Source: Nitrososphaera viennensis EN76 (GTDB taxonomy: Archaea; Thermoproteota; Nitrososphaeria; Nitrososphaerales; Nitrososphaeraceae). From it: 32,000 bases of DNA. Location: contig NZ_CP007536.1 of assembly GCF_000698785.1 (NCBI RefSeq), positions 2,250,001-2,282,000 on the forward strand, written 5' to 3'. The notes under the pieces are model-generated. The model worked only from the letters and a program-made list of their open reading frames with translations. It was not told the origin of the DNA and ran no database searches. This document shows, one piece after another, positions 1 through 10,981 of the stretch. The number at the start of each line of letters is the position of its first letter. Within the stretch, counting starts at the first letter, position 1. Both the position numbers and the translations under genes were made by a program.

Positions 1-59
1 TGCAGGCGTACGAGATGCGGCTTGACAGCGAGGGCGAGATCTACAGCGACAGCACCTAG
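1..59 (+). CDS. 3' end of an upstream element gene (partial; ...QAYEMRLDSEGEIYSDST*)
   Basis: Frame 3 is open from the window edge to the TAG at 57-59. That TAG forms the first 3 nt of the recurrent TAGTTCT motif. Confidence 0.35.
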   Translation, partial: QAYEMRLDSEGEIYSDST

Positions 60-67
60 TTCTATAT
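57..67 (+). promoter_or_regulatory. Element junction motif copy (TAGTTCTATAT)
   Basis: Exact TAGTTCT. The TAG is the stop codon of the upstream partial gene. The next ATG is at 66. Confidence 0.4.
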
Positions 68-365
68 GTGTAAAAAAGATGGTGAGTATTTGGGAGCATT
101 GGACCACATCAACAGAGAAGAGTTCCAGAATTTCCGCCAGGATGCCGGCGAGCACTTCAAGATGCTGCACGAGTGCGACAGGCGCATAGAGCGCAAGATA
201 GACGAGCTTGCCGCCCTGCTGGAGCCCGTGCTTGACGAGCACGCCCAGAGCATGGAAAGCAGGCGCGGCAGGCGTGAGGTCAAGATGCTTGCGATAGGCG
301 CCGCCCTTGGCGCGTTCTTTAGCGCAGTGACAGCCGCGATGCTGCTTCTTTTCCAGCTGGGCTAG
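66..365 (+). CDS. Small tail-anchored protein with a charged coiled-coil-like N-terminal part and one C-terminal TM helix
   Basis: 99-aa ORF with an ATG start. The hydrophobic C-terminus is MLAIGAALGAFFSAVTAAMLLLF. The gene ends in the junction-motif TAG. Confidence 0.6.
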   Translation: MCKKDGEYLGALDHINREEFQNFRQDAGEHFKMLHECDRRIERKIDELAALLEPVLDEHAQSMESRRGRREVKMLAIGAALGAFFSAVTAAMLLLFQLG

Positions 366-373
366 TTCTTTTT
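363..373 (+). promoter_or_regulatory. Element junction motif copy (TAGTTCTTTTT)
   Basis: The TAG is the stop codon of 66..365. The first T lies 35 nt before the ATG at 398. Confidence 0.5.
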
Positions 374-397
374 GCCCTTTTTCTGCAAGAGACTTTC

Positions 398-607
398 ATG
401 AGCGATCCATCCGTAGAAAAAGTGAGCCTGAACGCCAAGGAGATAATCCTTGCAATAGTGGTGTCTGCCGGGGCAGTCACGGCCCTGGTCTCTGCCGGCG
501 CGCTCTGGACCGGACACGCAGAGATAGCGGAAAAGGCGGGCCTTGCGTTTGTGAGCGGCATCGTGGGCTTTGGCGCGGGCATCGTGACTGCGCTGTGGGG
601 CCGCTAG
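398..607 (+). CDS. Small two-TM membrane protein (holin-like in size and topology only)
   Basis: 69-aa ORF with two hydrophobic segments. The ATG lies exactly 35 nt after the motif at 363, and the gene ends in the motif TAG at 605. Confidence 0.6.
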   Translation: MSDPSVEKVSLNAKEIILAIVVSAGAVTALVSAGALWTGHAEIAEKAGLAFVSGIVGFGAGIVTALWGR

Positions 608-615
608 TTCTTTTC
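605..615 (+). promoter_or_regulatory. Element junction motif copy (TAGTTCTTTTC)
   Basis: The TAG is the stop codon of 398..607. An in-frame GTG at 641 lies 36 nt downstream. Confidence 0.45.
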
Positions 616-631
616 TGGTTTTCTTTCATTT

Positions 632-8225: not shown

Positions 8226-8789
8226 GTGTCGCACACACTTGATTACCTTGACGTAAACAGGGCCGCGCTCTTTTCCAAGTCTGATGCCAAATACGTCAGG
8301 CGCCAGCTTTTTGCGGACAGGATTGACGCGTTTAACGAGCGTCTGGAACGCGTGCTTGCCGACCAGACCGCTTATGACGACCTTGTGCACCGGCATCTTG
8401 AGCCGCTGCAGGTAAGAAGGAAGGTAGACCTTGTGGTCAACTCTGGCCTGCAGCGCCTCGCCAAGCTGGCCACGGGCAAGACCACGAGCTCGTTTACACA
8501 CGTTGCCTGCGGGACAGGCACCAACGCTGAAAACGCAGGCGACACCGCGCTGCAGGCAGAGGTCCGGCGCATAGCGTGCACGGACCGCTTTGACTCGGGA
8601 ACGTCAATGAAGTTCTCCGGCTTTTTCGATTCAACAACGGCGACTGGCAGCTACACGGAATTCGGGCTGTTTGACGCCTCTTCCGGGGGCAACATGTTCT
8701 CGCGCACCGTGTTCTCGCCTGCCATCAATCACGCGCAGAACTCGACCGTCTTTGTACTGACCCAGGTGGTGAGCCAGGCAGCGTCATGA
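8226..8789 (+). CDS. Virion structural protein (baseplate/fibre-associated by position)
   Basis: 187-aa ORF. The GTG start lies exactly 35 nt after the motif at 8191. It is translationally coupled to the next gene through an ATGA overlap at 8786. Confidence 0.55.
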   Translation: MSHTLDYLDVNRAALFSKSDAKYVRRQLFADRIDAFNERLERVLADQTAYDDLVHRHLEPLQVRRKVDLVVNSGLQRLAKLATGKTTSSFTHVACGTGTNAENAGDTALQAEVRRIACTDRFDSGTSMKFSGFFDSTTATGSYTEFGLFDASSGGNMFSRTVFSPAINHAQNSTVFVLTQVVSQAAS

Positions 8790-9178
8790 GCTTCCGGCAA
8801 TTGCGCAAGATTCCCGGCCTTGACAACATCGTCAAGGACCTTGCCGAAAAGCAGAACAGGGCGCAGGCCGAGGATGGCATAGAGGACCTCACGCTTTTCC
8901 GGCAGAACAGGGTCGACACCGACGCAATCACGTACGCGGACACTGAAAGCCACGCGGCAAACGGCGACAGGACGGATGCCGACGGCATTTCACTTGCTGA
9001 CGTGGAAACAGCGCTGGCGCAAAACAGACAGCAATTTGACGCAGATGGAGATTTCTTTTGCGGGAGCGGGGCTGTCATCAACGAAACCGACAAGCCTTCT
9101 GGAGCATTTGCAGGCGGCATTGGAAACTTCAACGAGCCGGACCAACCAGCCGTCGCGGACTTCTCCGATGCAGGGTAG
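8786..9178 (+). CDS. Acidic hypothetical protein
   Basis: 130-aa Asp/Glu-rich ORF with its start overlapping the upstream stop. Confidence 0.5.
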   Translation: MSFRQLRKIPGLDNIVKDLAEKQNRAQAEDGIEDLTLFRQNRVDTDAITYADTESHAANGDRTDADGISLADVETALAQNRQQFDADGDFFCGSGAVINETDKPSGAFAGGIGNFNEPDQPAVADFSDAG

Positions 9179-9193
9179 AGTGATGATGGGTAG

Positions 9194-10675
9194 ATGGCGC
9201 TAAAAAAGCTCAATGTACCAGGCGTCAATCCCGGCAGCGTGGACAAGCTGTACGGCGAGGACTGGAACCGGCTCGTCGACGCGCTGACCGGCAACGTTGC
9301 AGAAAACATAACCCTCACCGGCTTGTTCAAGGTCAGCCGTCCCAATGCTGATCTTGCTGAATTTGTGGATACGAGTGTCGGCGTCAAGCTGAAGGTGAGG
9401 CCAATAACCTCGGGCACGCGCTGGATGAGCTTTGACATTGATGTTGATGGCGGCGGCTATGTCACGGATGTGTTGCAGCTACGAGAGCAAGAAGTCAGAA
9501 TAAACCAGCAATGCAATATTTTGGCTAACGTTGAAAGTGTCTTCTCTGCCAAAAGAACGAGCACTGGCGCCGTAGGCTATGAGTTGGGCAGCAATGATGC
9601 CACTGGCGGCAACGTCTACATCGACTTGCATACAGACAGCGGCGACGGAGACTATAGGTCAAGAATTATCAGGAACAACGGCGCAAACGGCACTTTCGAT
9701 CTTCAGCAGACCGGCACGGGCGCCATTCGGCTCATTGGCGCCAACGTCAATGTTGATAGCGGAAAACAACTCTTTCTTGATGGCGGCGGCGATACTTACC
9801 TGAGCGAAGTAGCAGCTAACCAGCTGCGTGCAACGGCAGGCGGCGCCGAGGTATGGACGGCTGTGCAAACGGCCCTTAATGTAGTGCAGGATCTCAAACT
9901 CGCCGCGGCAAAGAGGCTATACCTTGACGGTGGTGGAGACACGTACATCTATGAAAGCAGTGCAAACGTACTTGATTTTCTGGCTGGTAATATTTTGGCA
10001 ATGCGTCTAACTAATGTCAGCGCGTCTTTTGGCCAAGCCCTGACAATTCAAAATGATCAGGCTGACCTAATAAGGGCATACAGGCCAAATAACACGCCGA
10101 CAACAGGCAGTGGAATTCGGTTTGACCTTAACGATTCGGCAGGGAACCAAGAAGCGTATGCATTGATATACGGTATAATTGTCACCAACACAAACGGCGC
10201 CGAGGATGGCAAACTCTCGTTTAGGACAAAGAAAGCAGGCACTATGAAGAACTGGATGGAATTGCTGCAAGATGGAACATTCAGGATCTACGAAGATGCA
10301 GGCATTAAAAGCGTCTCTTTGAGACATGACGGCAATAATGCCATTCTTGCGGTATCGTCTGGAGATCTAGTCCTCCAACCGGGAGCTAACGTTTCAATAC
10401 CTTCAACAAAGAAACTTTATCTCGACGGCGGCGGTGACACGTTCATCCATGAAGCCAGCGCCAATATGCTAGATATTGTAAGCGGTGGGAGCGTAGGCAT
10501 TTCGCTTCGTGGAACCGGCCAGGTATGGCTGAGGGCAGGAAGCGGCGCAGCCGACCCGACTGCAAGCGATATCAACGCTGGCTATGGGATGTGGTGGAAA
10601 AACACTACGGCAAACGAAGTCAGGCTGTGGTACAACGATGGCGGAACGATGAAGAAAAGCGCAGCCCTTGCCTGA
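9194..10675 (+). CDS. Tail fibre / receptor-binding-type protein with three LYLDGGGDTY repeats
   Basis: 493 aa, rich in Gly/Asn/Thr. It has three copies of K(K/R/Q)L(Y/F)LDGGGDT(Y/F)(I/L)xE(x)xAN. It is the last large gene of the module. Confidence 0.65.
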   Translation: MALKKLNVPGVNPGSVDKLYGEDWNRLVDALTGNVAENITLTGLFKVSRPNADLAEFVDTSVGVKLKVRPITSGTRWMSFDIDVDGGGYVTDVLQLREQEVRINQQCNILANVESVFSAKRTSTGAVGYELGSNDATGGNVYIDLHTDSGDGDYRSRIIRNNGANGTFDLQQTGTGAIRLIGANVNVDSGKQLFLDGGGDTYLSEVAANQLRATAGGAEVWTAVQTALNVVQDLKLAAAKRLYLDGGGDTYIYESSANVLDFLAGNILAMRLTNVSASFGQALTIQNDQADLIRAYRPNNTPTTGSGIRFDLNDSAGNQEAYALIYGIIVTNTNGAEDGKLSFRTKKAGTMKNWMELLQDGTFRIYEDAGIKSVSLRHDGNNAILAVSSGDLVLQPGANVSIPSTKKLYLDGGGDTFIHEASANMLDIVSGGSVGISLRGTGQVWLRAGSGAADPTASDINAGYGMWWKNTTANEVRLWYNDGGTMKKSAALA

Positions 10676-10676
10676 A

Positions 10677-10687
10677 TAATTCTCTAC
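10677..10687 (+). promoter_or_regulatory. Element junction motif variant (TAATTCTCTAC)
   Basis: It lies 4 nt after the TGA at 10673-10675 and 35 nt before the ATG at 10712. Confidence 0.45.
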
Positions 10688-10711
10688 TATCTCCTTTTTT
10701 CATTATCTGCC

Positions 10712-10981
10712 ATGCCAGAATTATTAACATTTCAACAAAAAGTCGACGCCTTTGTCAATGCTGCACGCAAGGTCGCAGACAGGGCAGAGGACTATGACCG
10801 CAAGATCCTGCGCGACGGCAATGGCAATGCAGCCAACCTTGCAGACCCTATTTTCGGCCTGTCAGAAACAGAAATCACGACCAAGCTCAAGATGCGCATA
10901 AAGCCAGAATGGGATAATTTCAGGCAGGCAGAAGCGACGATGCTCGCAGAGCTGCAAGGGATTGACGGCGCCATAGAGTGA
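10712..10981 (+). CDS. Small hypothetical protein
   Basis: 89-aa ORF. The ATG lies exactly 35 nt after the TAATTCT variant at 10677. Confidence 0.5.
   Translation: MPELLTFQQKVDAFVNAARKVADRAEDYDRKILRDGNGNAANLADPIFGLSETEITTKLKMRIKPEWDNFRQAEATMLAELQGIDGAIE

Follow-up and report, generated by a model that had tools for sequence, protein, structure and literature searches.

The right two thirds of the provirus Nvie-Pro1 occupy positions 1 to ~11300 of a 32,000-nucleotide stretch of the chromosome of Nitrososphaera viennensis EN76, an ammonia-oxidizing archaeon from soil (the window, as the whole stretch is called here). One short word, TAGTTCTCTTTT, recurs ~35 nt before many structural genes, both of Nvie-Pro1 and of its distant relatives. 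We consider it likely that this word is a lineage-wide, non-canonical core promoter of structural (late-type) genes, one that would give leaderless mRNAs and is probably recognized by a dedicated TFB/TBP-type or viral factor. The tail-tube protein encoded at 2223-3101 has an identical copy in GenBank FR725450.1 ("Nitrososphaera phage Pro-Nvie1"), which holds the full Nvie-Pro1 and is referred to below as L007; a window position is the FR725450 position minus 9136. The provirus genes in the window, every one on the + strand, encode head-completion, tail tube, tape measure, baseplate and fibre functions, with g17 as the tail tube protein (PF18906), g20 as the Neck1/tail-completion protein, g21 as the tape measure, and g23 and g24 as baseplate-like and tail-fibre-like, respectively. 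The remainder of the window is host chromosome (multicopper oxidase, PepSY proteins, ABC transporter, aspartokinase, PCNA).

On the + strand TAGTTCT stands at 57, 363, 605, 1452, 1676, 2188, 6531 and 8191 and TAATTCT at 4070 and 10677, so all ten copies listed by a first-pass annotation of the window are present on the strand it gave. Within positions 1-11300 there are eight + strand and no - strand copies of TAGTTCT; TAATTCT also occurs on the - strand in this range, at 9668 and 10723. The ten occurrences of TAGTTCT in the whole window compare with 2.16 +/- 1.5 in dinucleotide-preserving shuffles, and ten or more were reached in 0 of 100 shuffles. Two TAGTTCT words fall in the host part (16481 and 30322), both inside long - strand open reading frames (ORFs). 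The motif's own TAG or TAA is the upstream stop codon at 57, 363, 605, 2188, 4070 and 6531, the copies at 1676, 8191 and 10677 begin 6, 5 and 1 nt past it, respectively, and the copy at 1452 lies 43 nt past the g14 stop, attached to no stop codon; the first-pass annotation had described these relations correctly.

The distance to the next gene is equally regular. Six copies stand exactly 35 nt before a start codon (363->398, 1452->1487, 1676->1711, 2188->2223, 8191->8226 and 10677->10712), with C at -1 in all six, just as had been reported. The four remaining copies (605, 4070, 6531 and 57) obey a 33-38 nt rule once their starts are fixed independently, and nine of the ten window copies lie 35-38 nt ahead of a start codon backed by annotation or orthology, copy 57 being atypical. 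In place of the fixed 35 nt proposed earlier, the rule spans 33-40 nt, and its mode differs between lineages (35, 37-38 or 34). In the full provirus there are 16 copies of [T/C]A[G/A]TTCT, none on the - strand, and they precede g3, g4 (as CAGTTCTCTTTT), the portal gene, the protease/capsid gene, g10-g13, g15-g17, the tape measure gene, g23, g24 and g27. For 14 of these 16, a start codon at 34-38 nt opens an ORF of at least 40 codons, against a background of 9% (binomial p ~2e-13), and four related elements resemble Nvie-Pro1 in this spacing test; taken element by element, binomial p lies between 1e-13 and 1e-6. In extended form the consensus reads TARTTCTCTTTT, and the 12-nt element can be written [T/C]A[G/A]TTCTCTTTT, with [T/C/A]A[G/A/C]TTC[T/C] as the core in more distant relatives.

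Four related elements in Nitrososphaera metagenome-assembled genomes (MAGs), with tube proteins 78, 76, 43 and 43% identical, carry the motif on their coding strand with unchanged spacing. Across nine orthologous junctions, pairwise identity is 92% at motif positions 1-7 and 73% at positions 8-12, as against 38-39% in the upstream 15 nt and the spacer. At 45 sites in four Nvie-Pro1-type elements the motif-to-start distance is 33 nt (2 sites), 34 (5), 35 (20), 36 (3), 37 (9), 38 (5) or 39 (1), and since this set was chosen for a start at 32-40 nt, the unselected test is that of the 14 of 16 copies in L007. The start codons at the 45 sites are ATG (22), GTG (17) and TTG (6), with a pyrimidine at -1 in 33.

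The same arrangement extends to much more distant viruses. AT-rich contigs found via the tube protein have exact TAGTTCT 35-36 nt ahead of independently called starts. In L124 (IMGVR_UViG_3300020200_000258, 2817-5771; 34% GC), whose capsid is 29% identical to that of Nvie-Pro1, the motif lies 34-36 nt before three genes, those for the protease and the capsid and the one that follows, and one of the copies supplies the capsid stop codon with its TAG. Viral contigs L137-L140, found via the capsid protein (43-52% GC) and encoding DNA polymerase B, Dam and C5 methylases and a PD-(D/E)XK nuclease, hold 38 copies of TA[G/A/C]TTC[T/C] 34-40 nt ahead of independently called starts; TAGTTCT is found on the + and - strands 16 and 0 times in L139, 10 and 2 times in L137, and 9 and 1 times in L138. 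Among 19 further metagenomic capsid relatives, TAGTTC[T/C] is placed 33-40 nt before a start in 30 of 42 cases on the coding strand and in 3 of 31 on the other. Relatives down to ~29% capsid identity and spanning 34-58% GC thus keep [T/C]A[G/A/C]TTC[T/C] 33-40 nt upstream of structural-gene starts, amid unconserved flanks.

The relatives also show which genes the motif marks. Start-linked copies in L137-L139 lie nearly all in the terminase-to-tail region, with one exception (L137 2200->2236), and the replication-module genes of these contigs have GGAG-type Shine-Dalgarno (SD) sequences or TATA-like boxes in place of the motif. This pattern, the motif before structural genes but not replication genes, holds for L137, L138 and L139 and also for L012-L016. 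Scanning related thaumarchaeal viral contigs, which the first-pass annotation had suggested, finds the motif at similar spacing, and the description "element-specific" has to be abandoned: a wide lineage of thaumarchaeal tailed viruses shares the motif, which marks their structural (late-type) genes only. CAG-, TAC-, AAG- and AAA-TTCT variants occur with unchanged spacing, and some relatives have CAG-, TAC-, AAG- or CAC-TTCTCT. From these variants the invariant part reads as A-N-TTCTCT with an optional stop triplet, so that fusion to the upstream stop is common, as had been claimed, but the first T and the stop are dispensable.

Several observations accompanied the search for relatives. Nvie-Pro1 is the sole match of the L124 capsid in the phage collection. 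A scan of IMG/VR for TAGTTCTCTTTT-N22-24-ATG gave, among the matches listed, mostly single and apparently random hits, of which only L124 proved a true relative, and an IMG/VR search with the tube protein found no relatives. A diverse tube alignment was dropped as a locus-search query, being too variable. L012, L013 and L016 encode giant proteins of 2100-2465 residues in the tail module (12553-18900, 12485-19882 and 11430-18443, respectively); the motif precedes the giant gene in L016 and the gene after it in L013.

The motif is seldom combined with SD signals. SD-like tetramers are found before 8 of 58 motif genes, compared to 42 of 76 other genes (five genomes; Fisher p = 7e-7), and the purine fraction from -24 to -1 is 0.33 for motif genes and 0.58 for the others. 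Where the motif is missing, genes overlap or are separated by very short gaps, with GGTGA/GGAGG sequences that are complementary to the 16S rRNA 3' end. Pairing of UAGUUCUC with the 16S rRNA 3' region was dropped, as it would presumably involve the inaccessible helix 45 and lie too distant from the start codon.

No SD precedes the host genes of the window; upstream of their ATG, at ~-30 to -24, stands TTTAAA or TTAAAA. The motif is unlike these host boxes, as had been remarked earlier, and TTTAAA occurs eight times in the host part and not at all in positions 1-11300. The host PepSY promoter, CAATTC-TTTAAA-23 nt-ATG, aligns column for column with TAGTTC-TCTTTT-23 nt-ATG, and this alignment would put TARTTC in the slot of the TFB recognition element (BRE) and TCTTTT in the TATA slot. 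All 11 Thaumarchaeota analysed with GeneMarkS-2 fell into its leaderless class, their promoter box lying ~26 nt ahead of the start (PMC6028130). The motif sits at the position of a leaderless promoter, its 5' end being 33-39 nt from the start in 45 of 45 selected sites (mode 35) with the start codon as proxy for the transcription start. There is a weak A/T rise near -10 at motif sites, the 15 nt upstream of the motif are unconserved, and no A/T-rich box was seen upstream of it. The motif as an initiator behind an upstream TATA was rejected, no A/T-rich box being present 20-40 nt upstream.

One of the 16 provirus copies lies inside a gene. At L007 6929-8659, upstream of the window, a 576-codon ORF fuses the protease to the major capsid protein (MCP), and an internal motif at 7402 stands 37 nt before an in-frame ATG at 7439, which we predict from the sequence to start a nested, separately expressed capsid protein of 406 residues. 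This protease/MCP boundary copy, conserved at the level of DNA, is found 37 nt before an in-frame ATG in L007, L008, L009, L137, L138 and L139, and at 40 nt in L140; L010 and L011 encode the MCP on its own, and the motif stands 37 nt ahead of that gene. Of 102 long MCP homologues, 24 show the signature that the boundary copy encodes (S/N-S-L/F/I, then 9-10 residues, then M, at the right C-terminal distance). In phages, a nested gene is a common arrangement for protease/scaffold genes, and a promoter at the boundary copy would give a nested, separately dosed capsid gene.

The conservation at orthologous junctions, the intragenic copy, the anti-correlation with SD, the BRE/TATA slot and the missing upstream A/T box together support a gene-start reading, and the comparative evidence favours what the first-pass annotation had suggested, namely that the motif signals a promoter or gene start and is frequently joined with the stop codon of the gene before. 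In the model that we propose, the motif occupies -35 to -24 from the start codon, the BRE plus TATA slot in a host with leaderless mRNAs, and RNA polymerase would initiate at, or 0-3 nt from, the ATG, GTG or TTG. Genes without the motif would ride in the same unit and be translated via SD sites or overlapping stop and start codons. The window would then comprise ten units (g11; g12; g13-g14; g15; g16; g17-g20; g21-g22; g23; g24-g26; g27-g28), in agreement with the earlier suggestion of a split into about ten short ones. Stop, promoter and start would be packed into ~38 nt, and with TAG or TAA as its first triplet, the motif commonly closes the ORF before it. The T-rich spacers may additionally terminate upstream transcripts, a second role that is plausible. 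Our analysis establishes that the motif exists, favours one strand, keeps its spacing, is deeply conserved, is restricted to the structural module, excludes SD and takes a position equivalent to that of the host TATA; that transcription starts at the motif-linked sites is what we infer from these sequences.

A motif that is unlike the host TATA and BRE yet conserved across hosts of 34-58% GC points to a dedicated, conserved recognition protein. Candidate readers are a viral protein or one of the expanded thaumarchaeal TFB/TBP paralogues, of which ammonia-oxidizing archaea have 9-21 domains per genome (PMC9239080). A more specific proposal, which we offer only tentatively, is a separate TATA-less initiation pathway in thaumarchaeal tailed viruses and in the gene transfer agent (GTA)-like Nvie-Pro1 elements derived from them. 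In the BRE slot, TAGTTC would be recognized by a dedicated factor of TFB/TBP type, a host paralogue or else an unrecognized viral protein, which would switch on every structural gene, including the nested capsid gene, as its own leaderless mRNA. As the provirus is without early genes of its own, the particle-forming locus would have this factor as its master switch, whether it came from the host or from a superinfecting relative.

Several points weigh against the motif as a core promoter. Positions 1-8, TAGTTCTC, contain G and C and have no resemblance to a TATA box of the TTTAAA/TTTATATA type, and the BRE slot holds the pyrimidine-rich TARTTC, which is not purine-rich on the coding strand. 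The motif-linked starts include 38% GTG and 13% TTG. T makes up 42% of the spacers, 26 of 46 sites have a run of at least five T, and an oligo-T terminator would look the same. Many promoters inside one 20-kb morphogenesis module are uncommon for tailed viruses, and Nvie-Pro1 has no early or regulatory module and no early genes. No credible TFB, TBP or helix-turn-helix match was found among the provirus proteins (PHROGs, Pfam and NCBIfam; PDB sequences for g13) in a search for recognition factors; the related viral contigs were represented only by parts of their sequence. Finally, the host DNA scanned for the motif amounts to only ~21 kb.

Other explanations of the same pattern have to be considered. 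The copies are many, identical, asymmetric, in one orientation and set in short gaps, often overlapping stop codons, all of which would suit an operator-type site, at which a repressor or activator binds over a weak T-rich promoter at every unit and one protein switches the whole morphogenesis cluster; such sites would be likened to stoperators or Mu C-protein sites and not to an element read by TFB/TBP. The T-rich stretch from -29 to -24 could act as a weak TATA, and the element is normally silent as a provirus or GTA-like locus (PMC6563490). However, the tight fixed spacing to the start and the exact position in the BRE slot are traits of a core element, a regulator gene was not detected in the provirus (PHROGs, Pfam, NCBIfam), and positions 7-12 are degenerate in distant relatives, leaving little to serve as the real promoter, so that we regard operators as unlikely. 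An operator site and a factor-read core element are inseparable computationally, and both amount to control of initiation at the level of DNA. Control at the level of RNA appears decidedly improbable. It would have UAGUUCUCUU bound or cleaved by a protein in long polycistronic late transcripts, yielding monocistronic mRNAs or SD-independent initiation, and it draws on the strand-specific, intergenic placement of the motif, on the absence of SD before motif-linked genes and on junction RNA that is pyrimidine-rich and unstructured (mean minimum free energy z-score 0.08), hence accessible. Yet features of DNA promoters are present, in the form of a match in position to the host TATA/BRE, an A/T rise at -10 and a pyrimidine-purine step at -1/+1. 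A scan for hairpin terminators found none at motif sites, and neither Rfam nor folding revealed an RNA family or structure at the junctions, the Rfam search giving no credible match at E <= 1 except one sub-threshold long non-coding RNA (E = 0.52), and we know of no precedent for an unstructured 7-12-mer serving as a ruler that places a start codon 33-40 nt away.

That TAGTTCT and its T-rich tract form nothing more than an intrinsic archaeal termination signal, with an incidental distance to the next gene, is suggested by the stop codon contained in or directly before the motif in nine of the ten window copies, and by the T content and T runs of the spacers. We think this very improbable, because termination at the conserved copies inside the protease/MCP fusion ORF of seven elements would abolish capsid synthesis. 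In addition, copy 1452 has no nearby stop, the CAG and TAC variants have no stop triplet, a T5 run is missing in 20 of 46 junctions, and the spacing constraint is tied to the downstream start codon and not to the upstream stop. The earlier alternative of a pure terminator or processing site is thereby disfavoured, though a second function of this kind is conceivable. Scarcely any credence is left for a module-boundary or recombination sequence, or for a compositional accident of short gaps: copies 605 and 1452 do flank an AT-rich island (632-1450, 39% GC), but the observed count was never reached in shuffles, the motif persists across 34-58% GC and ~29% capsid identity amid scrambled surroundings, and recombination offers no rationale for a fixed distance to the start.

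The individual junctions illustrate how the core promoter that we favour would be laid out along the + strand. The atypical one comes first (57-92), where motif TAGTTCTATATG supplies the g10 stop as its TAG and is followed by an SD-like GGTGAG and by the g11 start, TTG 90 from orthology, at 33 nt. This copy is without the CTTT extension and, because the orthologous junctions in L008 and L009 are without the motif, it may be young or fortuitous. Next, at 363-400, TAGTTCTTTTTG ends g11 with its TAG and leads through a T-rich spacer to ATG 398 of g12 (35 nt), a motif kept in L008 and L009; at 605-643, TAGTTCTTTTCT provides the g12 stop and stands 36 nt before GTG 641, the GenBank start of g13. 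The motif is missing at 1207-1219, where an SD-like AGGTGG lies 4 nt before ATG 1217 of g14, which from this arrangement reads as an internal gene of the unit starting at 641. At 1452-1489, TAGTTCTCAATT, with no stop attached, precedes ATG 1487 of g15 by 35 nt, and the L009 orthologue has TAATTCTCTTTC with a GTG at 37 nt and an ATG at 43 nt. At 1676-1713, TAGTTCTCTTTT begins 6 nt past the g15 stop and a very T-rich spacer separates it from ATG 1711 of g16 (35 nt); the L010 orthologue shows CAGTTCTTTATT at 35 nt. The tail tube gene g17 begins at ATG 2223, 35 nt from motif TAGTTCTCTTTA, whose TAG is the g16 stop (2188-2225), and the motif before the tube gene is kept in L008, L009, L010 and L011.

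Two junctions without the motif follow, at 3089-3103, where an SD-like GGTGAG precedes ATG 3101 of g18 and the ATG overlaps the g17 stop, and at 3677-3697, where an SD-like GGAGGGTGG precedes GTG 3695 of g20. The tape measure gene g21 starts at TTG 4108, as in GenBank, 38 nt from TAATTCTCTTGG, whose TAA is the g20 stop (4070-4110). At 6531-6571, TAGTTCTCATTT ends g22 with its TAG and lies 38 nt before GTG 6569 of g23; orthologues of g23 begin M-[T/S]-LPD... at the position of this GTG, and the same junction has AAATTCTCAT at 35 nt in L009 and TACTTCTCCG at 34 nt in L010. Motif TAGTTCTCTATT, 5 nt past the g23 stop, precedes GTG 8226 of g24 by 35 nt (8191-8228) and is kept in L009 and L010. An SD-like GTGGTGAG takes the place before ATG 8786 of g25, at a motif-less junction overlapping the g24 end (8766-8788), and the last motif of the window, TAATTCTCTACT, lies 1 nt past the g26 stop and 35 nt before ATG 10712 of g27 (10677-10714).

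The motif rule improves four gene starts in the window. We place g11 at TTG 90 (TTG 99 in GenBank, ATG 66 by other gene callers), g13 at GTG 641 (the GenBank start, compared to TTG 632 as first start in the ORF list), g16 at ATG 1711 (GTG 1672 in GenBank, with which the motif would fall inside the gene) and g23 at GTG 6569 (6695 in GenBank, ATG 6548 by other callers); these revisions rest on the motif rule, orthology, or both. The literature searched holds no description of the motif and no transcription start map for N. viennensis. All public Logan/ENA contigs are identical to the reference; their ends (L007 6442, 6903, 8184, 8829, 8913, 9999 and 10503), considered as possible transcript ends, fall off the predicted starts and are uninformative.

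Other features of the locus concern its history. The related element L009, from another Nitrososphaera MAG and with a tube protein 76% identical, adjoins the same host TP_methylase (precorrin-methylase-like) gene as Nvie-Pro1 (window 12236-13033, - strand; L009 18977-19435; 92% protein identity). The locus thus seems conserved between Nitrososphaera species while the element's proteins diverge much faster, in keeping with a published proposal (PMC6563490) by which Nvie-Pro1 would be a domesticated, GTA-like element. The AT-rich island at 632-1450, at 39% GC against 56-58% around it and bracketed by motif copies 605 and 1452, looks like an inserted moron; it carries g13, with a CxxC zinc-ribbon-like N-terminus, and g14, annotated in GenBank as histone-fold/NF-Y-like, and sequences resembling both occupy other element positions in relatives. 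In L007, 5' of the window, a RelA/SpoT-like nucleotidyltransferase-domain protein (5813-6445) is encoded directly after the Mu-type portal gene and overlaps it, and in L008-L011 a g13-like sequence takes its place behind the portal, a position that we would expect to hold a Mu-F-type head protein. A role for g13 as a transcription factor was considered and set aside, its TFIIB zinc-ribbon match being sub-threshold (E = 0.06) and distrusted in view of these g13-like sequences after the portal. In the host part, two PepSY-domain paralogues (15280-15960 and 17443-18153, both - strand) begin MSSLTGNK, and they and a neighbour (16144-16644, - strand) share similar-looking upstream sequence (ttacctatca...TTTAAA/TTAAAA) ~24 nt ahead of the ATG; judged by sequence, these genes form a small host family whose promoters are duplicated.

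Beyond the locus itself, the motif would be, as far as the literature was searched, the first defined cis-regulatory signal for viruses of ammonia-oxidizing archaea, and if the promoter reading is true, it would be a clear archaeal case of a gene-class-specific core promoter departing from TATA/BRE. The function of TFB/TBP paralogues in Thaumarchaeota would narrow to the question of which paralogue binds TAGTTC, and the replication-less, possibly GTA-like Nvie-Pro1 locus gains a single-switch model for how it may be turned on. The motif also reveals a predicted nested capsid start inside protease-capsid fusions and offers a sequence signature for spotting this viral lineage in metagenomes. To our knowledge ammonia-oxidizing archaea are still without genetic tools, and the motif is a compact, portable candidate promoter for their genetics.

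How does such a signal compare with known systems? One repeated short motif at nearly every gene boundary of a compact viral genome is also seen with the mimivirus AAAATTGA and the gene-end/gene-start signals of Mononegavirales, which punctuate gene junctions; the polymerases and mechanisms differ, and polymerase stuttering or re-initiation is not indicated here. Mycobacteriophage stoperators share the many short, asymmetric copies in one orientation, in short gaps and often overlapping stop codons. They are repressor sites without fixed spacing to starts, and the start-associated sequences of these phages lie 3-8 nt before starts and include the SD; in our case the spacing is 33-40 nt, SD is absent and no regulator was found in the provirus. 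The promoters of the Sulfolobus rudiviruses SIRV1/2 have a virus-specific consensus element and a host activator, Sta1 (PMC1635249), and resemble ours as archaeal virus promoters that share a virus-specific sequence and implicate the host machinery plus an extra factor. In SIRV1/2 the extra element is added to a normal TATA and BRE, whereas here the canonical boxes are apparently replaced.

The closest system is the ordinary archaeal leaderless promoter (GeneMarkS-2 'group D'; PMC6028130), which has the same architecture: a single upstream element that reaches from ~-35 (5' end) to ~-24 (3' end), no SD at the led gene and SD at downstream genes, a weak A/T-rich -10 and a pyrimidine/purine start step. 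It differs in sequence, with TTTAAA/TTTATATA after a purine-rich BRE where our elements have TAGTTCTCTTTT, and the TATA and BRE sequence features are absent here; in addition, the viral motif is confined to structural genes and far more uniform than host promoters. For function we look elsewhere. Phage T4 late promoters, TATAAATA, are read with gp55, and Mu late promoters with protein C. In gammaherpesviruses, late promoters have a TATT motif and depend on a viral pre-initiation complex (vPIC) that includes BcRF1 (PMC12246146). Compared to these, the host here is archaeal, the motif is further from TATA than TATT is, Nvie-Pro1 is without early genes and the reader is only a candidate. What they share with our motif is a non-canonical core element that sits in the TATA (or -35/-10) slot and sets the late, structural class apart from early genes of the same genome. 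In function, the best analogy would be a class of late-gene promoters that depends on an initiation factor of its own.

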